Shown: positions 3,001-46,964 of the stretch, piece after piece
How the letters are laid out: each line of letters begins with the position of its first letter
How positions within the stretch are numbered: the stretch's first letter is position 1
NCBI GenBank assembly: GCA_010093605.1
Contig: MU004203.1
Coordinates: 326,391-390,390, forward strand
DNA length: 64,000 nucleotides
Reading direction: 5' to 3'
Source of the DNA: Lophium mytilinum
Taxonomy: Eukaryota
Made by a program: the position numbers and the translations under genes
The notes under the pieces: model-generated
What the model was told of the DNA's origin: nothing
Databases searched by the model: none
Seen by the model: the letters and a program-made list of their open reading frames with translations, nothing else

Positions 3001-3281
3001 CAGTGTTTGTGTGTTGAACAAGGTGGAAAGAGTGGTCATCTTCCCTCTAGGTATTCCAGCGATGGATGATCCGAACGGCTGTAAGGTTGAAGGGCTTCAA
3101 GTGGTACTCGCTCGGGAGCGACATGCTTTTATGCGGGAAGCATCCTCACAGTATTGATCAACTGGTGTTGCTATACTCACTTCAATGAGTGTATCACGTG
3201 ATATATGCATCTGATTAGCTTTTGGAGTTGTGATTGAATCGATGCTTGATATAACTCTTCTGACGCCTTTCCACGATCTCT

Positions 3282-3292
3282 GATGAGTCATC
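3282..3292. promoter_or_regulatory. Gcn4/CpcA (AP-1 type) bZIP consensus site
   Basis: GATGAGTCATC is a pseudo-palindromic ATGA(C/G)TCAT match about 300 bp upstream of the ubc12 ATG. Confidence 0.35.
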
Positions 3293-3586
3293 GTGATAGC
3301 CTCATTCACTAGATTAAAGTGGTGCTGCCTGGTGGCGGGGTTTCCTCGGTCATATCGCCTTTCGACGAGGCGGTCCCTCGACAAGCATTCACTCACAGCA
3401 GCAGCCTGCTCTCTCACTTCTGCCTCTCTTGCGGCTTTCCTTAACCAGCGGATCTCAGTCACTCCCACGACCAAGTCGGACCCTCACTTTTCTACGCGCA
3501 CTGCTCTTATTTTTCACGGCATCAACGCCGCAGCCCACCCCCCACCATTCCACCACCTCTGGTCCAACCCTTCACCCACCGTCAAG

Positions 3587-4362
3587 ATGCTCAAGATATG
3601 GTCTATGGTAGGTTTCGATACTCTATTCCCCCGACAGTCGGGATACGCGTTTGCAACATTCTCAGCGCACAGTCTACTCTCAGAAAGATCGCTAACCCTC
3701 TCACAGAAGCAGAAGCAGCAGCAGGATGAGTCCGCTGCCACAGGGCCGAAGAAGAAGAAGGTCACCGCTGCACAGCTGCGAGTTCAGAAAGGTATGTGCA
3801 GCCCTTGTGGAGGATAACAAGGCGACGTCATCGCAGGAACTCGACTGACAGTGGCCTTCAATAGATCTCTCAGAGCTATCACTCGGCTCGACGATGAAGA
3901 CCGACTTCCCGAATCCCGACGACATCCTTAACTTTACTTTGACGATCGAGCCGGACGAGGGCATGTACAAAGGGGGACGCTTCAACTTCAACTTTGCCAT
4001 CAACCAGAACTTCCCACACGACCCGCCAAAGGTCAAGTGCACGCAGAAGATCTACCACCCGAACATTGATCTGGAGGGCAACGTCTGCCTGAACATTCTT
4101 AGGGAAGACTGGAAGCCGGTGTTGAATCTGAACGCGGTTATTGTCGGACTACAGGTGAGCTCAATAACAGTCATGTGAATAGATGTGCAGGAAGCTGACG
4201 GGCACACAGTTTCTCTTCCTAGAACCTAATGCGTCCGACCCACTAAACAAGGAGGCTGCCGAAGACCTGAAGTCGAACCGAGAAGGCTTCAAGCGCAACG
4301 TACGGTCAGCTATGGGAGGAGGCGCCGTCAAGGGTCAGTCATATGAGCGCGTACTCAAATGA
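3587..4362 (+). CDS. ubc12: NEDD8-conjugating E2 enzyme Ubc12 (4 exons: 3587-3607, 3707-3791, 3865-4154, 4210-4362)
   Basis: N-terminal [27 protein letters not shown] extension, active-site [23 protein letters not shown] and C-terminal [17 protein letters not shown]. Canonical GT..AG introns. Confidence 0.95.
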
Positions 4363-4801: not shown

Positions 4802-6229
4802 ATGGCTGCCCGTCAATCCAGCAGAGCTCTACGAAGCTCCGTCAAGCAATTGGCGTCTGCCCCCGCCGTCCAAAGGCGCACATTCGTCTCGGCCCTCAGT
4901 GCTGCCAGAGCTGGCTTTGCAGCTGCACCAAAGGCTGCTGTCTCCTCTCCCTTTCAACAGACCCGTGGTATCAAGACCATTGACTTTGCGGGCACCAAGG
5001 AGACCGTTTATGGTAAATTGAGCTCTATCAACCCACAAATTTCGCTAATGGATATCAACAGAGCGTGACGATTGGCCAAGGGAAAAGCTTCTTGTGAGTC
5101 ACCTGCTGACAACAGCAATTGTATAGGACTACAGTACTAACATATGAGTTCAGCAATACTTCAAGGACGACACCCTTGCCCTCATCGGCTACGGATCGCA
5201 AGGTCACGGCCAAGGTCTCAACCTCCGCGACAATGGCCTCAACGTAATCGTCGGTGTGCGGAAGAACGGCGCCTCGTGGAAGGAGGCGGAGCAGGATGGC
5301 TGGATCCCCGGCAAGAACCTGTTCGACATTGACGAGGCCATCTCCAAGGGTACCATCATCATGAACTTGCTCTCCGATGCTGCTCAGAGTGAGACATGGC
5401 CCGCCATCAAGCCTCAGTTGGTGAAGGGAAAGGTGCGTGACTTATATCTGGAGATATCGGTAAATAAACTAACTCGGAACCAGACTCTGTACTTCTCCCA
5501 CGGCTTCTCCCCCGTCTTCAAGGACCTCACCAAGGTCGACGTCCCCAAGGACATCGACGTCATCCTCTGCGCCCCCAAGGGCTCCGGCCGCACCGTGCGA
5601 ACCCTCTTCCGCGAGGGCCGTGGCATCAACTCCTCCGTCGCTGTCTACCAAGACGTGACCGGCAAGGCCGAGGAGAAGGTCGTTGCCCTCGGCGTGGCCG
5701 TCGGCTCCGGATACCTCTACAAGACCACCTTCGAGAAGGAGGTGTGGTCTGATCTGTACGGCGAACGTGGCTGCCTGATGGGCGGAATTCACGGCATGTT
5801 CCTCGCCCAGTACGAGGTTCTGCGCGAGCGGGGCCACAGCCCCAGCGAGGCGTTCAACGAGACTGTCGAGGAGGCTACCCAGAGCTTGTACCCCTTGATC
5901 GGCGCCAACGGCATGGACTACATGTACGCGGCCTGCTCGACCACCGCCAGACGTGGTGCCATTGACTGGAGCAAGCGCTTCAAGGATACCCTGAAGCCCG
6001 TCTTCAACGACCTCTACGATTCCGTCAAGGATGGATCCGAGACTGCGAGGTCTCTGGAGTACAACAGCCGTCCAGATTACCGCGAACTGTACAACAAGGA
6101 GATGGCTGAGATTGCTGACTTGGAGATCTGGAGGGCTGGAAAGGCCGTGCGGTAAGCTTCACCCCCTCGTCATTGCCTATCAACCAAACTGACATGAATA
6201 GATCTCTCCGCCCCGAGAACCAGAAGTAG
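4802..6229 (+). CDS. ilv5: Mitochondrial ketol-acid reductoisomerase (multi-exon, includes a 32-bp exon at 5062-5093)
   Basis: Arg/Ser/Ala-rich presequence, then ALIGYGSQGHGQGLNLRDNGLNVIVG, LLSDAAQ, SHGFSPVF, APKGSGRTVR, SDLYGERGCLMG and GHSPSEAFNETVEEA. The last exon reads SLRPENQK*. Confidence 0.97.
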
Positions 6230-25616: not shown

Positions 25617-28600
25617 ATGGCAAATCCCAATCACGTGCACGATGACACTCTCCACGTCCACAACGGACAGAACATCTACGCCGATCCAGAGTACAATCCT
25701 CTGTTCCCGGGCACCGTCAACCCGTCCTTTGACCCCAATGCCTACAACCACTACGCTGCCTCCGCCCCACCCCAGGCTTGGCAGCAACAGCCGACCATCT
25801 CACGGCCAGAATCAGCGCTGGGCGCCCCCTACGAAGCCAGCAACCAGTTCTACGGCCGCCCCTTCTCCAACAGCCCGCTGCAGTTCCAGGACCAGCCCTT
25901 TCGCCATGCGAACATCAACTCGTACTCCCAGCAGCCTGCGGTGGACCCATCCCTGGTGTCATCCTCCATGCGGCAACCCAGCTACGACCTGGGAATGAGG
26001 AACATGATGCCCACGAGCGGCTCGCCGAGCACCATTTCCCCGCAGGCACTTCAAACCACCATCAGGATCAAGCAAGAGGACCAGTCGTCGATGCTGAACA
26101 GCCACAAAGCTAGTCCCGCCGTCCAAGTATGTCCAACCCATTCAAGACGACCCACTCAAGCTAACATCTCCAGGAGCCCGCACCCAAACCATCTGCACAG
26201 TCGTATGGCTTCCAGCAGTCGGTCCCGCCAGCAAAGGTGGCTGTGCCTGTGAATCCGTCCATCGTGACGCCAAAGGGTGAATTGCAGGGTAAATTCATGG
26301 TCAAGAATCTCGACGAACTCGTAAAGGCCACAAAATCCGTCCGCTTGCACCACTTCGTGACTCTCAGTGATATTACTCTAGACTTGCCACTCAATAAAAG
26401 TAGGATCCCCAACCCAAATACTCACCACCCCCACACCACATTGCAATGACTGACCGTGTCAAAGCTACGATCCCCAACTACATGCCAAGGAAGTCCAAGC
26501 GGGAGATTAGGATCCTAGCTGCCAACGATAAGCACCTATCGAGTATGTTCTCCTTCGCCTTACACAGCCATTGTGGCACTTCAATAGCTAACATACTGGA
26601 CAGCAAAAATCACCAAGAAGTCCGGCAAGAAGTCGTCAGCCACCCTGAGGGCCCCTCGCATCCGGACTGAACTTTCAAGTGCACAGTCTCCGACAAGTCT
26701 GAAGCGGGAGTATAGTGACAGTGCTAGCGAGACAGACTCGTCTGATGATTCTGACTACTCCTCGGATGAGGAAACCCCTGAGCCCTCCCCGTTGCCAGAT
26801 TCAAGGCCCGAAGAGCCCAAAGCCGCCGTGAACTATGATGTGACCAAAGCCATCTGGCTACCTTCCAAGTCTTCTGCCAGACCTGAGCAGATTCGCACTG
26901 CTCTCGTTGATTTCTGGGAGGTGGTTCGGACGATCAGGGATCGGTGGCGCCTCGACAATGCTGCTGTCAAGCAGGCAGAGGAGAAGAAGAGGGTTAGCGA
27001 GCTCCCTATGCTGAGGAGCCGCGTTGGGAGCCAACAGGCCATGATGGAGGTAGCGCTCAAGACCGCTCTTGAGCGTGGCCATCCGGACATTGTTCACCAC
27101 CTTAGCGAGAACAAGCCTTTCCTTCTTCTTCTTTACCAGTTCATTGCGGACCGCATCACGTCCAAAGATTACGATGGCGTTATGGTTGGCGTCATTCTGG
27201 ACCTTCTGTCGCGATGTAGCACCCTGACAAATGCCAAACTCGAAGAGTCTAAGCTGTCCAAAGTCTTCACCATAATGTCTAAGCCGGGAAAAGGCAATGA
27301 TAAGACGAAAGCACAAATCAAGCAGATTCTGGCTAAAGTTGCGGCGTCGCCGGAGACTAAGGTTGCGTCCCCTGCACAGAAGTCTGGTGATACAAAGGAC
27401 AACACCAAGACCACGCAGCCAACAACACGACCCTCTGCCGAGCCTCTGGCAGGCAATAAGCGGCCGCGAACTACGGATGGTATTTCGGGTGAGCCTGCGA
27501 AGAGGGTTGCCTCAGGCCTTAACAGACCAGCTATATCTACCACCGCAAAAGCCCCAACAAATGGGCTGAAGCGCCCTGGCGACAGATCTGTAGCTCCAAC
27601 CAACGCTGCACCAAAGGCCAAGGTCAATCCCTTGGTTGCGAAACCGACAAGTCTCTTCTCCAACTTGCAGTCAGCGCCAAAGAGACCCGGTGCTCAACCT
27701 GTGACCAAGCTAGGAGCTCACGCAAAACCTGCCGCCAATGCTTTGGGCCAAAAGAAAGCTGCTACGGCACCTCCCATGCGATCCGCGGCGCCAGCATTCT
27801 CATTCGCCGAGACTATGGCCAACTTGATGAAGCCGAAGGAACCGGAAGTGGTGGTCAAGCCCGAGGAGAAACGACCGCCAGAGACACCGGAGGAAAAGGC
27901 AAAGCGGCTTCGGAAAGAATCTCGTCGACATCTGCGGGTAGCTTTTCGTCCGGATGCGACTCTTGTTAGCGTTCGATACTTCAGTCACGACCCCGAAGAA
28001 GAGGTTGGCCATGACGCTAGTATGGTCCGTGACGCCGGTGACGTTGGCGGTGAAGGTCGCATGTTCAAGCAGCATAAGGACATGGACGAGGATGATGAAG
28101 ATGACGACCTGCCTCGTGAAGAGTCGTTCCGTGACTGGATTGAGCCATCAGAGATTGACTTTAGCGTTATCGCCAACGATGAGCGCAAAAAGAATTACCC
28201 TAAATACGGTGGAGGCATGAACGAGGATTGGAAGTTCCCTGAGAAAGAGGAGAACGAACGCCGGGAGGCCAATACACTAATGGTGTTCTATGCTCAAAAG
28301 TCTGATATCCCGCCGTCGCCACGAGAGCCACCTGAGCAGGCCGAAAAGGCTCCAGCAGAAGTTGTTCAGTTTGGCCTACCACCCCAAGAAGTCCTCAACC
28401 GTGCCGCTGCTTTTGCACCTGTTCCTGTGCAGCCTCCAGTGCAAGACTTGGCTGCAATCTTCAACATGATGGCTCAACAACCTCAGCAGCAGCCAGTTGC
28501 TCCGACTTCTCAGCTCGAGAGCGTCTTCGCGCAATTTGCAGCCAAACCTGCTCCAGCACCACAACAGACCCCTCCTACCGACATCTACTCGATCCTCGGC

Positions 28601-29089
28601 GCACTTCAACAGCCACAGGCGCCGCAGCAAGTGCCACAGATGCCGCAGTATCCTTCTCCTTTCGGCGTGCAGCCACCTCCCCAGGCCGCACCTTCCCCAG
28701 ACGTGAATGCTCTACTAGCGACACTCTTTTCCACCAGTCAACCAAATGGTGCCGCTCCTCAAGCGCCTTTCAATATGCCCTACAACTTCGCAAACATGGG
28801 CCAGCAGCTTCAAGGCCAGCATCAGCAACAGTCCGCTGTCTACGAGAACGAAGAGCGTAAGCGATGGCGTGAGAACGGCGGCTACCAAGAACCTCCTCCC
28901 GCTGACCGTGGGTCTGAGCGTGAACACGGCGGCTCGTTTAAGAAGGGGAAGAACAAAAACAAGGGAGGATCTGGAGGTTTCCAGAAACCGCACAAGGTAC
29001 ACCCGTGTAGGTTCTTCCAGGAGGGCAAGTGCGCGAAGGGCGATGCGTGCACGTATATCCATGATCCGAATGATGTTAGGAAGCGGTGA
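25617..29089 (+). CDS. Large nuclear protein with an RVxF PP1-docking motif and a C-terminal CCCH zinc finger (probable PNUTS/Ppn1/Ref2-type), multi-exon
   Basis: Short 5' exons splice into long ORF 26792..29089. It contains a helical domain (LLYQF...LEESKLSKVF), RKESRRHLRVAFRPDATLVSVRYF, a Q/P-rich tract and a terminal CRFFQEGKCAKGDACTYIH. Confidence 0.8.
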
Positions 29090-30279: not shown

Positions 30280-31584
30280 ATGAAAGCTCTACAAGAAGAA
30301 TTAATCTCCTTCATGTTCCTACGAGATGAGCACGGCCAGCTCGACGTCATGGCCTGCCTCGCCCTCTGGTTCGGCAAATCCAACACAACCGACATCGCCA
30401 TCAACACCCGCTTCGGTCACCACGTCGCAGCCGCCCTCGCGAGCTCCTACACCTCCTGGACCTCCACCGCACGCGGCTGTCTCGCCCTCATGATCCTCAT
30501 CGACCAATTCCCCCGAAACATCCACCGCCACACCATCTCCTCCTTCGCCGGCGACCTCATAGCCCGCTCCATCGCAACCCTCCCCTTCGACTGGCTCCGC
30601 GAACTCACACCCGAAGAATGCATCTTCGTCCCCTGCCTCATCATGACCCACCAAGAACACCTCGCCTCGCAGCGCGCCGGCGTCGCCTTCTACAACACCC
30701 TAGAACCGCACCTCCCACCCACCCTGCACATCTTCCGCACGATCTTCGAAGAGCATCTACGGATCATAGAGCTCTGCGGCACGTTCCCCCACCGCGACCA
30801 CTACTACAACCGCCCCACGACCCCGCTCGGGAAACAGCTGATGCAGAACCCGAAAATCCGCTTCGACCTGCCCCTGATCGCGGAAAACGGCTGCATGAAA
30901 TTCGGCCACGACCCGCGGAAGCCGTGGCTAGCGACCCAACGCGCTTTCGACGCGCTCGAGCGCATCGAAGCGCTCGCGAACGAGACGGGGCGGCGGGGCA
31001 GCGCGGCGCCCGCGAGCTGGCTGGATGAAGCGGAGGTGGCGGAGTGTCGGGAGACGTTTCGCGCGTTCGATAAGGACGGGAACGGGTTTTTCGATCGCAG
31101 CGAGCTGGGGACTGTGTTGGCGAGTGCGGGGCGGGTTTGTGAGGCGGAGCAGCTGCAGATGGCGATGGATCGGATTAGTGGGGTGGTGGGGACGGCGAGG
31201 GTTACGTTTGAGGAGTTCTCGGCGCTGTTTCGCGCGAAGTTGGATGTGAGTCTTGAGGCGAGGGCGCAGAGGAGGTTTAGTTTGTTTGATAAGCATAAGA
31301 GTGGGGAGATTGATCTTGCGGAGTTGAGGGCGTGTATTCAGAGTGTGGATGATTTGGTCACCGGGGCGGAGGTGGAGGAGATGTTGAGGGCGTGTGATGT
31401 GGATGGGAATGGGCAGGTTTCGCTGGAGGAGTTTGTGGCGATGATGCCGTTGATGGGGGAGGTGCCGAAGGGGAAGGTCGTGGAAGTGGTGGGGGGGGAG
31501 AGTGCGGGGGTGGTGGTTGATGTGGTGGTGGTTCAAGAGCTTGACAGTTATAGGTGGAAGGATGGAGCATACTTGAGCGTTTGA
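30280..31584 (+). CDS. DUF924 domain fused to a calmodulin-like four-EF-hand module (intronless)
   Basis: The N-half has DUF924 motifs (WFGK, LALMILIDQFPRNIHR, MTHQE, H..II...G.FPHR). The C-half has EF loops DKDGNGFFDRSE, a degenerate second loop (..VTFEEF), DKHKSGEIDLAE and DVDGNGQVSLEE. Confidence 0.88.
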   Translation: MKALQEELISFMFLRDEHGQLDVMACLALWFGKSNTTDIAINTRFGHHVAAALASSYTSWTSTARGCLALMILIDQFPRNIHRHTISSFAGDLIARSIATLPFDWLRELTPEECIFVPCLIMTHQEHLASQRAGVAFYNTLEPHLPPTLHIFRTIFEEHLRIIELCGTFPHRDHYYNRPTTPLGKQLMQNPKIRFDLPLIAENGCMKFGHDPRKPWLATQRAFDALERIEALANETGRRGSAAPASWLDEAEVAECRETFRAFDKDGNGFFDRSELGTVLASAGRVCEAEQLQMAMDRISGVVGTARVTFEEFSALFRAKLDVSLEARAQRRFSLFDKHKSGEIDLAELRACIQSVDDLVTGAEVEEMLRACDVDGNGQVSLEEFVAMMPLMGEVPKGKVVEVVGGESAGVVVDVVVVQELDSYRWKDGAYLSV

Positions 31585-32317
31585 AAAGGGTCATGTACAT
31601 ACTTTGGTCACTTTGGCGTTCGGTTGCACCAGTTGTTATGTGGCCGCCATGGACGTTGTGTGCACAAGATAAGATGCAGACGAAAGTGGTAAAACTTATG
31701 AAAAGACACGAGTATAGATTTTCTGTGCAGACATGACTTGTGGAAAATTTTGGTACAGTAAAGCCTCGGTATAGTGTTTTCGGGTTACAGTGATATACTC
31801 TGTAGAGTGATATATCTCGGCTCTGACCGTACAAATTTGTATAAGGAATAGTAATATCCTGCTTACTATGGTATCATAAGCTCCCGCGCCCAAGATCATA
31901 CTAACTATGGAGGATTTTGTATGGGCGGGTAGTCCGTGGCACCTCTAAAACCCCCTTAATCTCGCTGTTTTGGGAGCTATTGGCTTACAATTCACTTACA
32001 CGTGGCTAAAAACACAGTGATACACCCTCGGCGAACGACTCCCATCACTATACCGAGGGTTTACTGTATTCGGGGACCATCAAACTTTGATGAAACGGTG
32101 TTAGGCGTCACTGTCTATCAGCACCGTGTTGACAGTGCACATCAATGGTCGAAGCTTAGAATTAGTTCTAGTGATAATTCATAGGCCGTTTCGTAGACAT
32201 AAGAGAGTGGGTGATGGTCTTTTGACCGAGATGGCCCCTGAACCAGACATCATTCCATCAAAGCAACAAGAAACCAGCATCATATCAAACTCTCAGCACC
32301 CCGATTGACCGAGCTGG

Positions 32318-33328
32318 CTACCATTGCTGATGGTCCCAGTTGGCCCCTAGCAAGCCACGCTCTCCGAACCGAGTCCCTCCAATCTGACGCTGTCCGGTTT
32401 CGTGGACCGAGTTCCTACGGCTGGAAGCCACTGAGGCACGTCGCTCCTGAAGCAACCGCTGGCTACGTCCCGGACCGTCTGGACGCCTGTCTCCCGATGG
32501 CTCCGAGGCATCATCCTCGTCATCAGGCTCATCATACCCCTCGAAGACATAGCCAGAATCGCCATTTCCACCCCGCTGCTGCCGAGATAGCTGCTGTTGA
32601 GGTCCCTGTTGCTGGGATCGCTGCTGTTGAGGTCCTTGTGACTGGGATCGCTGTTGCTGGGACCGCTGCTGCTCCCGCTCTCGCACCATAGCACCAACGT
32701 CTGGACCCCAGAGGTCGCGGCCCTCAAGATGTCCAGAGTGGTGGCCACGCTCGTACCCGTCATCGTAACCCTCGGCTCGGCCCTCAGATCGGCCCTCGGA
32801 TCGGCCTCTCACATATCCCATCTGTTCTCCGCGTCGCAAGTAGCCTTGCGCGTACTGGACGCCCTGACGGCGACCTTGCTGGAATCCCTGCTGCTGGCCG
32901 TATTGCATGCCTTCCTGTCGGCCGTAGTGTGCGCCCTGTTGTCGGCCATACTGTAGGCCTTGCTGCAAGCCTACTTGCCTGCCATACTGGGCACCTTGGT
33001 GGCGGCCGTATTGTACGCCTTGACGCCGACCATATTGCAGGCCCTGCTGGCGGCCATACATCAAGCCTTGTTGTCGTCCATACTGGACCCCCTGGTTGCG
33101 CCCATACTGTAGGCCTTGTTGACGGCCAGCACGAAGAGCACGAGCGACTTCCTCACGATGGCTGGCGTCGTCTCGGTCTGAATCGTCCGAATCCCCGTCC
33201 CCCATCCAATAAGTAATCTCTCCCTCGTCTGAATCCCCATCCTGATCTCTGCTCCTATATCGCATGGATCGAGCACTGCTAGGCCGTCCATTCCGGACCA
33301 TGTGGTCGAAAATTAGAGCGGCCTCCAT
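32318..33328 (-). CDS. Uncharacterised Gly-X3-repeat, Q/R/Y-rich protein, paralog A
   Basis: Intronless ORF. The ATG at 33328 (ACAATGG) aligns with the start of paralog B, and a TATA lies at about 33513-33519. It has 23 + 10 consecutive GXXX units and ends GANWDHQQW*. Confidence 0.85.
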   Translation of the reverse strand: MEAALIFDHMVRNGRPSSARSMRYRSRDQDGDSDEGEITYWMGDGDSDDSDRDDASHREEVARALRAGRQQGLQYGRNQGVQYGRQQGLMYGRQQGLQYGRRQGVQYGRHQGAQYGRQVGLQQGLQYGRQQGAHYGRQEGMQYGQQQGFQQGRRQGVQYAQGYLRRGEQMGYVRGRSEGRSEGRAEGYDDGYERGHHSGHLEGRDLWGPDVGAMVREREQQRSQQQRSQSQGPQQQRSQQQGPQQQLSRQQRGGNGDSGYVFEGYDEPDDEDDASEPSGDRRPDGPGRSQRLLQERRASVASSRRNSVHETGQRQIGGTRFGERGLLGANWDHQQW

Positions 33329-33540
33329 TGTGTATACTGGGTGAAGTAAACGGAGTATCAAAGAGGTGGTTGTGAAGCTTTAGAAGCTGAAGAGAAGAGT
33401 ATGCGCTTGAGAAGATGCGGCTGTGGTGTGGAAGTGTCGAAGAGGTTGTTGTGGTGTGGTTGTATGGGAAACGTTGTTGTGGTTTGCAAAAAGCAGCGTG
33501 AGCAGCAGGTCCTTTTATATGCGTCCTGGATACATCAAAG

Positions 33541-33860
33541 ATTCACTGGTCTTAGTGCCGGTTCCCTCGAAACTGGCGCCCCTGGAGGTTTCCTCGAGAG
33601 TTGCCGGTGAGTAACGAAATTCACTGGTCTCAGTGCCGGTTCCCTCGAAACTGGCGCCCCTGGAGGTTTCCTTGAGAGTTGCCGGTAAGTAACGAAATTC
33701 ACTGGTTTCAGTGCCGGCTCCCTCGAAGCTGGCGCGCCTGGAGGCTTCCCCGAAAGTGGCCCGTAAGTAATTATATTCACTGGTTTCAGTGCCGGCTCCC
33801 TCGAAGCTGGCGCGCCTGGAGGCTTCCCCGAAAGTGGCCCGTAAGTAATGACATTCACTG
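33541..33860. repeat. 78-bp tandem repeat, 4 copies plus a partial copy
   Basis: Units start ATTCACTG at 33541, 33619, 33697, 33775 and 33853. Copies 1/2 and copies 3/4 form near-identical pairs. Confidence 0.95.
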
Positions 33861-34478
33861 ATTTGGTGGACACTAGAAACTTAGCTTCAGTGGTGCTCTG
33901 CATCATCAAGTCAAGCCAGACTACCCCAGCGAGACAAATAATTAGCGTCCAGTGTAATGTTCAGCAAGAATAAAAGGGTATGGCATGTATGCCGGATCCT
34001 GAACTATTTGATTATGGCTCCTTGGTCGGATACGCACGAAGGCAATGTCATATGACAAATATAAGAAAATTGGGCCAGTCGGGTAATATGAATGATAGTA
34101 GCTGACTAAGAACGACGAGAAGAAGAGGATTTATACTTGAAGAGTAGACATCACGGCCCCAATAGCGTTCTGTTCTGGTGAAGTCGCCCTGAAAAGTCTA
34201 GAATGGGGTGTTGGAGAATTACTCATTCAGAGGACCGAAATAGAAGGAACTAATCTAAAAGGTTTGAAACCCTCAGGCAGACCAATACTAAGCTAGCTGA
34301 GCTAGATAGCCACTTGATTAGGGTACAGCCCTATGCCGGAGCTATGTTATTAATAGCCCATGGCAGGCCAAAGAAAGCAACCAGAATCTGATTTCGGAAA
34401 TTCGTAGCGAGCCATGAACTCAAGACTACCTAAGAAGACAAAAGTCCATTCCCATCATCGCCGCGACTCCTCGAGGTC

Positions 34479-43978: not shown

Positions 43979-45083
43979 TAGAGGTTATTTCAGTCGAAGT
44001 TAGTAGGAAAGGAGTCTTAGATAGTGGAAATGTGTCTCTTCAGCCGCAGAGCGTCCTAGGCGAAAGATCACAAATACACCTAATGTATAATGAATCCCAT
44101 GAACTTACATTTGCCCCTCGTGTGTCACATTTGGCACGGCTCTACAAAAAGATCACCTTTACGCCAACATTGAAGTCAACGTACGCTGATTGTCGTGATA
44201 ATATTCTATTCGTACGATCGGGCAACCGAACAGCACCGTAGCGTCCCTTTGTACGAGGAGTACGAGGCTGTGCACGCTCATATGGTGATTTGCAGGGGCT
44301 ACTTCGTACGGACCGTACAGTACGCGTCAACCTAGCGGGCTCCAAGCCTCCTTGATATCAGGCTTCGAAACGTGCGAGTCTGATCGTCAGAGACATTGAA
44401 CGCTCGCATCTCGCATCAGACACCCCGCGTGTACTAGTCTCTTGCTGACGCCCGAAGAACAAAGCTGAGATCTGCAAAACGAAGTCTTGAAACTTATAAC
44501 TGCCAGCGGTCACAACTCTCAGTGTCTTCTTACTCTTTCATGTATCAGGTTATTATATACGTAGCTTGTCTAAGTTCTAACATCGTCCTTTCCTTATCAC
44601 AACTCGTATCATCACGCCTGCTACCAATTCTGCTATTCCCAACTCTGGAACCCCCATACCCATCCTACCCTCTTGTCCGCGCAAAATCACTGTCCGGAGG
44701 GGCCCAGCTAGCAGCCTACTAGCCCATCAAGGGACTGCCAAAATTCCGCTACATCAACCTCTAAGTCCTTCAAGAACGTGACACTTATAAGCTTAGGCAT
44801 ACCACTACCCAGGCTTCAGTCTTGTTCTCTCAACACCACTGTCAGGAGCTGCCCAGGTAGCAAGTTATTGACCCGTCCAGAGAAAGTGCAATTCCAACCG
44901 CATCAGCCATTACATCCTCTGAAGACGTCAAATCTCTAAGCTTAGGCACACAGATAGCACAGCATATAGCATTGCTCAAGCTCCCCCCTTGCCCACTCAA
45001 AACCACCATCAGGAGTACCCCAGCCAACACCCTACCAAACCATCGCGAAAGCCACCCAAAACCACACCACACCATCCCCCACC

Positions 45084-46964
45084 ATGTCCTCCCCCCAAAA
45101 ATACGACTTCATCATCATCGGCGGCGGCACCGCCGGCCTCCCCCTCAGCGCCCTCCTCTCCGCCTCCCCCCACCTCTCCATCCTCGTCCTCGAAGCCGGC
45201 GCCCACCACCCGACCTCCACCGACCCCTTAGTCGACATCCCCGGCCTCTACGGGCACTCCTTCGGCCGCCCCACCCACGACTGGAGCTTCACCACCGTCC
45301 CGCAGCAGCACCTGCACAACACGACCCACCGCTGGCCGCGCGGCAAGATGCTCGGCGGCACCAGCGGCATCAACCTCATGATGCACTCGCAGTGCTCCGC
45401 GCGCGACTTGGACAATTGGGTCGCGCTCGGCAACCCGGGCTGGTCGTACGCGGAGCTGCTGCCGTATTTCCAGCGCTCAGAGAGGTACAGCGCGCCGTCG
45501 GAGGCGCTGGGGGAGAAGCTGGGGTATGTGCCCGTGGATGCGGGGCTCCGGGGCGGCGAGGGCCCTGTGAGGGTTGGGTTCTGCGAAAGCGTGAGTACGT
45601 GGGCGCAGGGGATGTGGCCGGTGCTTGGGGAGGCGATGGGGTATCCGAGCCCGAAGGACTGTAGGGGGGGAACGAGTTTGGGGTTGTTTAATCAGCCGCT
45701 GGGGGTGGATGAGCAGGGGAGGAGGAGTTATGCGACGCGGTATTGGGAGCCGGTGCGGGAGAGGGGGAACTTGGAGGTCAGGACGGGGTCGTTGGTAGAG
45801 AGGGTTGTGTTTGGGGAGGGAAAGGGAGCGAAGGGGGTGGCGGCTACGGGGGTGCAGTATGTTTGTGAGGGGGAGAGGGTTACGGTTGAGCTTGGGGAGG
45901 GAGGGGAAGTAATTGTGTGTGCTGGGGCTGTGCAGAGTCCCCAGATTTTGGAGTTGTCAGGGCTTGGGAATAAGGAGGTGTTGGAGAGGTATGGAATTGA
46001 GATGGTTGTGGCATTACCGGGTGTGGGGGAGAATTTGAGGGATCACATTGTGGCGCCTTTTAGTTGGGTAAGTTGAGATGATCCGGATGATTTGTGACGA
46101 CTACTAACACGCTGTGGTGAATAGGAGGTCAAAGAAGGAGTGCCCACTAGCGAGGCGGCGGCAAAGCCAGAAGTGTTCGCACAGCTAATGGAGCTCTATC
46201 AGAAGACCCAGGGAGGGCCATTGGCGAATACAGTAACCACGACGGGTTTCCTCCCATACCACGGCCTAGCAACAACATTGTCGACAACCGACACTGAGGA
46301 GCACATCAAGGATATTTGCCCCACGTTGATGAGCCCTCCAGATGCTCTTGCGAAGCTCCAGCTCATAGACAAGAGTGAGGCAGCTGTGCAAGTCCTCTTC
46401 GTATCAAAAGGAGTAGACACCGCGCGAATGGACACTCCACGCACCGGATGGGGCCACAGTTTCCCAGGAGCATACGGCACAATCCTCGCTGCCACAACGA
46501 GGACTTTCTCTCGCGGCAGCATCCACATCAAGTCCGCAGACCCAACAGAGCATCCAGAGATCGATCCAGCTTATCTTTCGCATCCCTTAGACATAGATGT
46601 TCTCGCTCAAGCAATCCTTCATTTCCAAGACATGGCTAGAACGGATCCTTTGAGTGGATTCCTCAAGAAAGACGCTGACGGCGCGAATGTTCCGATACCA
46701 GGAATGACGGCTCCGAAGACGCTCGCGGAGGCGAAACAACACGTGCACAAGCACGCATTCACAGAGTACCACCCCATCGGCACATGTTCAATGCTGCCAA
46801 AAGAGAGTGGAGGTGTGGTTGATTCGAATCTGAAGGTGTATGGGACTACGAATGTGCGGGTGTGCGATGCTAGCATCTTTCCAATGCATGTCCAGGGGAA
46901 CATACAAAGCCTAGTGTACGCTGTTGCAGAGAAAACGGCTGATTTGCTCCTAGCGAAGAAGTGA
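45084..46964 (+). CDS. GMC oxidoreductase (AA3), intracellular, 2 exons (intron about 46068-46124)
   Basis: YDFIIIGGGTAG, LVLEAG, WPRGKMLGGTSGIN, EVIVCAGAVQSPQILELSG, VGENLRDH and the catalytic YHPIGTCSM...GVVDSNLKVYGTTNVRVCDASIFP. No signal peptide. Confidence 0.93.

Follow-up and report, generated by a model that had tools for sequence, protein, structure and literature searches.

Calcium-dependent protein kinases (CDPKs) represent the best-known sensor-responders that possess their own calmodulin (CaM)-like domain and junction. As described in PMC12941087, effector, helical junction and CaM-like domain are joined in one CDPK chain, in which the junction and the CaM-like domain form an intramolecular complex. 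Fusions of CaM-like domains to seven-transmembrane (7TM), Tic110-like, redox and cyclic nucleotide monophosphate (cNMP) domains in cyanobacteria and proteobacteria were described by Schaffer, Iyer, Burroughs and Aravind in 2020 (PMC7016017), who, in the passages at hand, tie such fusions to membrane signalling and redox; those passages mention neither a built-in target helix nor a transfer to fungi, and DUF924 is absent from the main text and from the accessible part of the supplement. Here, we analysed a gene at positions 30280-31584 (+) of a 64,000-nucleotide stretch of Lophium mytilinum DNA (contig MU004203.1; the whole stretch is hereafter called the window), the product of which carries, from the N- to the C-terminus, DUF924, a hairpin, a target helix, a linker, a CaM-like domain and a disordered tail. 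The DUF924-helix-CaM family to which it belongs is a real variant of the integrated calmodulin sensor-responder.

The order effector-helix-CaM is alike in the window protein and in CDPKs, although the binding of the helical junction by the protein's own lobes is only predicted here. No kinase family is found among the 11 Pfam matches at E ≤ 1, and the CDPK domain 3khe superposes poorly on the model in VIA (Z 8.8, root-mean-square deviation (rmsd) 14.9, 155 residues aligned). Unlike in CDPKs, the helix of the window family is near neutral and common to unrelated effectors, the second EF-hand (EF2) is dead, and a collapsed two-lobe wrap is predicted. The model superposes, helix included, on complexes of Ca2+-CaM with 1-8-14 targets (the myosin light chain kinase or RS20 peptide; 1cdl, 1qtx) and on peptide-CaM sensors (GCaMP, 9v59, 6hr1, 6xyr) with rmsd values of 1.9-2.6, but the window family differs from these CaM-peptide complexes in having target and sensor in one natural chain, three usable loops and a binding that is predicted. 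Judging from the models, the fused protein appears to work like a CDPK activation domain or the core of GCaMP, yet it is neither a CDPK nor a calmodulin. We favour, with moderate confidence, the reading that DUF924 is an effector that would be controlled by a self-clasping calmodulin cassette closed by Ca2+.

The layout is already apparent in automatic annotation, where the Joint Genome Institute (JGI) name is 'DUF924 family/Ca2+-binding EF-hand superfamily protein'. A literature search that reached few subscription papers returned no paper on a DUF924-CaM fusion, on its built-in helix or on the mobility of the cassette.

A candidate built-in target helix and its calmodulin-like domain

The open reading frame (ORF) consists of 434 codons plus stop in one open frame. 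A homologue search returned 98 proteins from 8000 scored candidates; 91 of them cover both halves of the window protein, 90 also cover the helix, and 74 of these are near full length (at least 380 aa) with the same layout. Named members of the fused family are found in ascomycetes (Mytilinidion, Microthyrium, Amniculicola, Melanomma, Cadophora, Hyaloscypha and Amylocarpus) and in cyanobacteria (Microcoleus and Kamptonema), the closest named relative being that of Mytilinidion resinicola with 88% identity. A search by pattern through species genomes of bacteria and archaea yielded 383 relatives. The best 80 were kept, and 13 of them extend over the entire fusion, from seven cyanobacteria, three alphaproteobacteria, two Shewanella and one SAR324; two of the 13 loci are broken. 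The fused gene is found as a rare, conserved, accessory family. From the window protein, 52 homologue matches and 12 loci we assembled 65 rows, which also served for quick trees of the two halves.

The candidate CaM-target helix comprises residues 213-233 (30916-30978, +), with W216, F223 and I229 in 1-8-14 spacing, followed by L232. The 1-8-14 class of calmodulin targets, that of myosin light chain kinase, is defined in PMC5698441. A Trp at position 1 together with hydrophobic residues at positions 8 and 14 is present in 64/64 rows that have the segment, which is deleted in one row, and in phmmer the helix aligns with the peptide that serves as target in the engineered sensor WHaloCaMP1a. A profile built from the helix matches 95 of 97 proteins of the fused family, compared with 1 of 135 DUF924 proteins of other layouts (E 0.0066). 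The initial annotation had proposed an effector with a built-in calcium sensor on a CDPK-like plan, and the conserved 1-8-14 helix between the halves, which that annotation had overlooked, strengthens the proposal with its predicted binding.

The CaM-like domain (residues 246-392; 31015-31455, +) has two lobes and falls into one clade with modules on other effectors. Residues 246-393 are collinear with calmodulin over its entire length in phmmer, the identity in structural alignments is 35-39%, and Pfam EF-hand families match two to three stretches C-terminal to DUF924. Calmodulin itself is a stand-alone, highly conserved protein of about 150 aa. Its four intact Ca2+ loops are not found here, since EF2 (31168-31212, +) is non-canonical in all 65 rows and EF3 (31288-31323, +) of the window copy carries a His at loop position 3, a site occupied by Asp in 80 of the 97 aligned rows. 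As noted in the initial annotation, EF1 (residues 264-275; 31069-31104, +) and EF4 (residues 373-384; 31396-31431, +) are canonical and EF2 has lost its loop; the partial degeneration that it saw in EF3 is also real but particular to the window copy. Under a strict pattern, EF1, EF2, EF3 and EF4 pass in 37, 0, 27 and 36 of the 39 fungal-clade rows and in 5, 0, 17 and 10 of the 26 bacterial rows, respectively.

In the AlphaFold model, built with 75 sequences (mean predicted local distance difference test (pLDDT) score 84, predicted template modelling (pTM) score 0.82), residues 213-233 are helical. The top Foldseek matches are engineered Ca2+ sensors and CaM-peptide complexes, including 9v59 (179 columns, rmsd 2.6) and 1cdl (template modelling (TM) score 0.86), and VIA aligns 6xyr over residues 213-391 (Z 21.9, rmsd 2.5, 170 aligned) and 6hr1 over residues 211-391 (Z 20.7, rmsd 2.4, 165 aligned). 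The alignments to 9v59, 6xyr and 6hr1 take in helix 213-233 at the peptide position of these CaM-peptide fusions, and the helix is accordingly placed by the model, as a prediction, inside collapsed CaM-like lobes as in GCaMP-type sensors. When helix and lobes were submitted as separate chains, the complex prediction scored 0.55 compared with 0.06 for the best control, with at least 61% of contacts in agreement between runs and a partner pLDDT of at least 59. The mark applied is one that 51 of 78 solved pairs and 2 of 108 mismatched pairs reach, and scores of 0.60 or lower comprise only 5 of the 78 solved pairs yet all 4 mismatches that passed; the two-chain prediction lends weak support to helix-lobe binding.

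The same cassette occurs on other effectors. At locus L097, a DUF924-helix-CaM gene (4989-6194, +) is divergent from a helix-CaM-S-adenosylmethionine (SAM) methyltransferase gene (3001-4161, -), the product of which starts a few residues before the Trp, so that the helix lies at a free N-terminus, and is identical to P0423 of Aetokthonos hydrillicola, in a cluster of 27 sequences. A short remnant of a methyltransferase-type gene also stands beside a DUF924-CaM gene at L005:7126-7215. Among 401 sampled cyanobacterial genomes, five were matched by the cassette at E 1e-20 or better; among the matched proteins, five are ~815 aa long and have a Cys-rich membrane part, and one is a type II NADH dehydrogenase (NDH-2). 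The latter (L181:3753-5657, -) is a cyanobacterial enzyme with a C-terminal CaM-like domain of the DUF924-cassette type and recalls the Ca2+-regulated NDH-2 enzymes of plants.

The membrane family was matched in 45 of the 401 genomes, one of them via the cassette only, and 30 loci were fetched. EF-hands are present in 10 of the 30, as a full domain in four and as the C-lobe alone in six (L187-L192), in which the Trp helix is retained. In the 20 rows that could be anchored, the helix motif is found in 8/8 with EF-hands and in 0/12 without (Fisher value 8e-6, overstated because the rows are related); 10 rows were dropped for want of an anchor, two with EF-hands showing the motif by eye, and the anchor pattern replaced an earlier one that matched no row. 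The position-1 Trp docks in the calmodulin C-lobe, and the retention of the C-lobe together with the Trp helix fits this docking. Two of the Cys-rich membrane proteins, L177 and L179, probably belong to the CaM-like fusions of PMC7016017. A Microcoleus protein of ~800 aa (L168:1-1968, -) carries a more typical four-loop CaM-like domain at its N-terminus, followed by a region with a CPYC motif.

With eight CaM-like rows as outgroup, all 31 of the cassette CaM domains tested fall into a single clade with a Shimodaira-Hasegawa-like approximate likelihood ratio test (SH-aLRT) value of 98, and the dead EF2 is common to all of them. Copies from the membrane family and from NDH-2 are placed inside the group of cyanobacterial DUF924 copies (93), to which the methyltransferase copies are sister (86). 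Phylogenetically, helix and CaM-like domain are shown to have been inherited and moved as one unit.

The DUF924 domain and its fusion partners

DUF924 (residues 28-191; 30361-30852, +) is all-helical with the fold of Atu0120 of Agrobacterium tumefaciens (PF06041, structure 2I6H), which likewise has DQFPRN, H-x-E and FPHR. The Pfam match reaches 107.3 bits against a cut-off of 27 (E 1.3e-30, model positions 14-179 of 180), 2i6h is matched at E 3.4e-14, and the model superposes on 2i6h with Z 22.6, rmsd 1.6, 173 aligned residues and 31% identity in VIA and with E 3.7e-08 in Foldseek. The next VIA match has a Z of 8.1, and nothing clear was found beyond 2i6h, although no family is thereby excluded. 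The motifs DQFPRN (residues 75-80), HQE (124-126), FPHR (169-172) and RRGS (238-241) sit where the initial annotation had placed them.

Atu0120 stands alone, whereas the branch of the window bears fused domains (sensors or enzymes) and an RFDLP hairpin and has the Tyr that precedes H-x-E replaced by Cys; the fused family mostly has Asp for the Asn that follows FPHR. The branch is marked by WFGK, by the Cys before T-H-x-E and by the RFDLP hairpin; the position before H-x-E is Cys in 56/61 rows of the branch and Tyr in 13/16 stand-alone rows. The segment from Cys119 to His124 and Glu126 (30634-30657, +), in which the branch-specific Cys adjoins invariant residues, is a candidate pocket, and the RFDLP motif with its beta-hairpin (residues 192-212; 30853-30915, +) is a C-terminal extension of the branch. 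At the other end, the N-terminal helix and hairpin (residues 1-27; 30280-30360, +) contain Q5, M12, F13, R15 and C26, which are nearly invariant in the fused family.

We counted the partners of this branch in the best 120 of 235 relatives of a form with N-terminal EF-hands. This search covered proteins of 284-907 aa, which makes it blind to short stand-alone forms, and its counts are dominated by one peroxiredoxin-fusion clade and are therefore not frequencies. RFDLP is present in 117 of the 120 and peroxiredoxin in 74, of which 73 have a TPVC motif, the Pfam family being the 1-Cys Prx C-terminus; other partners are EF-hands (23), cNMP-binding domains (13), SCO4226-like domains (13), ChaC (1) and cysteine synthase (1), and eight relatives carry none of these. 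EF-hands joined the branch at least twice, in front of DUF924 (a diatom cluster and Hyaloraphidium) and behind it. P0273, P0327 and P0328 represent a large bacterial family of (cNMP-binding)-DUF924-1-Cys peroxiredoxin fusions, and the SCO4226-like domain is joined to DUF924 in a separate clade. ChaC-EF-DUF924, cysteine synthase-DUF924 and a form in which EF-hands flank DUF924 at either end (P0264, P0314, P0322, P0311) come mostly from transcript-sized contigs. The protein P0183 of Ploeotia vitrea has a tandem DUF924 without EF-hands and Trp plus basic residues after each hairpin, stretches that we speculate to be a possible site for free calmodulin.

Because sensor fusions recur, the branch would seem to be a regulated effector, as the domain architectures suggest. 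The initial annotation had regarded the fusion as a Rosetta-stone clue to DUF924 function, and these further fusions strengthen that view; its statement that DUF924 normally stands alone is right for the canonical branch and fails for the branch of the window, with its many fusions, short forms being unseen. The enzyme partners hint at cysteine, glutathione and peroxide chemistry. Given the Cys next to H124 and the fusions of the branch with 1-Cys peroxiredoxin, ChaC and cysteine synthase, our tentative bet, which may well prove wrong, is that DUF924 binds or processes a metabolite of the cysteine or glutathione type, or a redox partner; a role as a peptide-binding adaptor is about as likely. 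In the literature, no function was found for DUF924 or Atu0120, which appear in table entries only, subscription papers being mostly beyond the search. According to Table S4 of the PMC4427199 supplement, the structure 2i6h of stand-alone Atu0120 holds three Ca2+, which may be a crystallisation effect. No NCBIfam family lies above the cut-off for P0001, and the ESM Atlas gave only DUF924 clusters below 0.9 and no usable match for P0074.

The L. mytilinum genome has a second DUF924 gene, L161 (G000:C5:1126143-1126802), which is distant and stand-alone in type, probably contains an intron and sits on a long branch; no real local alignment was found between it and the window protein.

How the cassette may control DUF924

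The cassette consists of the Trp-anchored 1-8-14 helix, a short variable linker and the CaM-like domain, in which EF2 is dead whereas EF1, EF3 and EF4 are as a rule intact. As modelled, the two lobes would close round their own helix in the manner of Ca2+-calmodulin on the myosin light chain kinase peptide or of GCaMP-type sensors. A rise in Ca2+ would fill EF1, EF3 and EF4 and cause the clasp to close or tighten, and the compaction would alter the seating of the cassette on DUF924, gating a conserved surface that includes W30, F31, D75, Q76, R79, R83, C119, H124, E126, H159, H171, R172 and R178. Because the helix also serves unrelated effectors and is N-terminal and free in the methyltransferase fusion, a role as cap and coupling element is more likely for it than one as a pseudosubstrate specific to DUF924. 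The weakest step of this mechanism is what DUF924 does.

Several observations weigh against this reading of a Ca2+-closed clasp on an effector. The 1-8-14 spacing alone, which is common in amphipathic helices, is weak evidence, and the DUF924 helix that starts at F156 fits the same spacing in 62 of 64 rows. The methyltransferase copies of the helix were not picked up by the helix profile, and the NDH-2 copy of the cassette has lost the Trp. Classic calmodulin targets are usually net basic, and the helix (residues 213-233) is not strongly so, with a net charge of +1 in the window copy and means of +0.4 in fungal and -1.1 in bacterial copies. Both models may echo the many solved CaM-peptide complexes, and the predicted contact of the cassette with the DUF924 surface is inferred from pTM only. 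No shared neighbours were found at the bacterial loci L001-L013 beyond those of close Microcoleus relatives. To these points are added the dominance of one clade in the partner counts, the choice of the bacterial group in the tree test described below, and the departures of the window copy from its family (L215P, D339H, G55S, Y82H and Y287C).

These departures raise the possibility, which is compatible with a Ca2+-closed clasp and which we consider real if somewhat improbable, that the switch works in the family while the window copy is decaying or has become less sensitive to Ca2+. Compared with the Mytilinidion protein, the window copy has 41 differences in the first 392 positions, of which 27 lead away from the residue that is commoner in the family and 12 lead towards that residue, and its end branch is 0.09-0.15, compared with 0.01 for Mytilinidion. 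The target helix is headed by Pro215 in place of a Leu kept in 63/64 rows, the third loop has its His, and broken relatives exist (L010, L013, L081, L089, L093, L095). The intact frame, in which nearly all invariant residues are kept, speaks against decay, as do RNA-type contigs on the gene with no differing letters listed. Read from its sequence, the window copy may be a weakened switch.

The transcript evidence comes from the one run that covers the gene; it is not on record as RNA but was guessed to be so, and it shows 12 joints with intron-type ends in neighbouring genes. Because its contigs lie on bins covering the DUF924-CaM ORF and no splice joint was found inside it in this run, the gene is transcribed and an intron is not seen; none of the contigs listed bridges both halves of the ORF, and contig depth cannot rank expression. 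No intron is needed because the single frame matches the start and layout of the homologues, in agreement with the intronless gene of the initial annotation.

Closure of the lobes on the helix might also have nothing to do with switching. If the clasp were permanent, the helix would be a structural core that is held with or without Ca2+, and Ca2+ would only stabilise the fold or be buffered, with no switch on DUF924. We consider this unlikely. It agrees with the dead EF2 in 65/65 rows, with bacterial EF1 and EF4 loops that pass the strict pattern in only 5/26 and 10/26 rows, and with the AlphaFold closed form, which arises without an ion being supplied; the three Ca2+ with which Atu0120 crystallised, as given in Table S4 of the PMC4427199 supplement, make a structural role for Ca2+ possible. 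The near-neutral helix can be read in two ways, since tethering could offset its charge, which equally permits a permanent clasp. However, most of the 39 fungal-clade rows retain three of the loops (EF1 in 37, EF3 in 27 and EF4 in 36 rows), the addition of the cassette to four unrelated effectors suits a regulator better than a scaffold, and the DUF924 branch bears other sensor domains (cNMP-binding, SCO4226-like and N-terminal EF-hands).

The effector-junction-CaM order equals that of CDPKs as given in PMC12941087, and the helix directly follows the hairpin that ends the domain. Under a strict CDPK logic, the helix would autoinhibit a groove of DUF924 without Ca2+ and be extracted by the loaded lobes, which would free the groove for a partner peptide, DUF924 being a TPR-like adaptor instead of an enzyme acting on small molecules, and TPR and 14-3-3-like bundles do resemble the DUF924 model at Z ≤ 8.1. 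The best matches to peptide-binding domains of these types, with Z ≤ 6.8 and rmsd values of 3.3-5.7, appear to be at chance level for helical bundles, and the helix is found with three other effectors and absent from DUF924 of other layouts, so it seems to be the sensor's part; we therefore rate autoinhibition of this kind as quite improbable.

Age and origin of the fused gene

A recent chance fusion of a DUF924 gene with a calmodulin gene, or an assembly chimera of the two, at which the sharp change from C-rich to G-rich sequence within an intronless ORF might hint, is practically out of the question given 74/98 near-full-length fusions, 13 bacterial loci, matching half-trees, and a codon switch at codon 179 inside DUF924 that is repeated in the GMC oxidoreductase gene at 44970-46073. 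Along the gene, the share of C at four-fold sites drops from 0.69-0.90 to 0.03, and that of G climbs from 0.04 to 0.72-0.81, so the C-rich DUF924 half and G-rich EF half of the initial annotation are real as a synonymous-site gradient. An equally extreme gradient (C 0.77 to 0.02, G 0.03 to 0.54) runs through the exon of the GMC oxidoreductase (+), and a weaker one is present in several others of the 22 long frames within the window, which served as the only control. Because the switch is centred inside DUF924 and recurs in the unrelated oxidoreductase, it marks no seam.

The separate phylogenies of the halves that the initial annotation had called for recover the same main groups, disagreeing on the alphaproteobacterial rows, which are placed with the fungal clade or with the cyanobacteria. 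A recent fusion was rejected, as homologues span fungi and several bacterial groups, the half-trees match and the C/G switch lies inside DUF924. Of the two origins that the initial annotation had left open, recent fusion and horizontal transfer, the second is supported, for a gene that was already fused. In a tree rooted with other DUF924 branches as outgroup, 17 fungal-clade rows group with SH-aLRT values of 78-88, and the fungal clade joins four rows of an alphaproteobacterial clade (98-99) and then the cyanobacteria (99-100), with Shewanella and SAR324 outside. Holding all 16 bacterial rows together was rejected with an approximately unbiased (AU) test value of p-AU 0.025, for a group that was chosen after viewing a tree, all trees being quick. 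The unbroken fungal-clade loci that were checked match in one frame without introns, and the host window is fungal, with intron-bearing housekeeping genes flanking the site. The simpler reading, and on these trees probably the right one, is that the gene was already fused when ascomycetes acquired it from bacteria; a possible alternative is that eukaryotes were the source in several transfers, most tree rows being without a taxon name.

The variable linker of the window protein contains RRGS (30991-31002, +), and RRxS is the protein kinase A (PKA) consensus. The site had first appeared to be simply unconserved, which was revised by a clade-wise count: RRxS/T is found in the linker of 14/39 fungal-clade rows in several subgroups, compared with a shuffle mean of 0.73 (the rows being related), and in 0/26 bacterial rows. 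The suggestion in the initial annotation of a PKA site is partly supported, as a possible site in part of the fungal clade and not in the family core, to which it may be a later fungal addition. The tail (residues 393-434; 31456-31581, +) is unconserved and predicted to be disordered, with pLDDT < 50 over residues 392-434.

Viral contigs gave no relative of P0074, none of the 93 plasmid records that match the DUF924 part spans 80% of the protein, and none of six matches in longer proteins (969-2765 aa) has DUF924, which is weak evidence. The neighbours of stand-alone DUF924 genes mostly reflect Mesorhizobium synteny. Directly downstream of the Rhodospirillales fusion gene lies a pair of an Xre antitoxin and a RES-domain toxin (L002:8006-9100, +), which is not found at the other loci. 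In the window, the upstream neighbour (26588-29089, +) encodes a large protein ending in a CCCH zinc finger and is spliced and transcribed, with a long 3′ end to 29614. Downstream, a 353-aa frame (32321-33379, -) with many short Gly/Gln/Tyr-rich repeats, Gln/Arg-rich tracts and a Yae1_N match above the Pfam cut-off lies in a stretch without RNA contig cover, none being found at 32217-34019, and tandem repeats of roughly 80-90 bases at about 33500-33960 appear as repeated translations in two minus-strand frames.

A wider scenario, which is possible though on balance doubtful, would be that a natural GCaMP-like plug-in Ca2+ switch evolved in bacteria, started on DUF924, was copied in cyanobacteria to the membrane protein, the methyltransferase and NDH-2, and passed to ascomycetes, some of which added a PKA-type site, with DUF924 as a regulated thiol/redox effector that, according to the lineage, is read out by Ca2+, by cyclic nucleotides or by metals. 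The weight of these findings is limited by a layout that was visible in automatic annotation, by the rarity and accessory nature of the gene, and by a mechanism that is wholly predicted. If the mechanism is true, the small, portable helix-plus-CaM cassette, which fungi and bacteria have in common, would be a second natural design beside CDPKs and would clearly exemplify calmodulin-style target clasping within bacteria. Having three loops and a near-neutral target helix, the cassette would also offer a natural scaffold from which to develop calcium indicators. For DUF924, which is widespread, has one structure and for which searches found no function, the family would provide a handle: the Ca2+ switch would permit Ca2+-dependent ligand assays, and the fusion partners indicate which ligands deserve the first trial.

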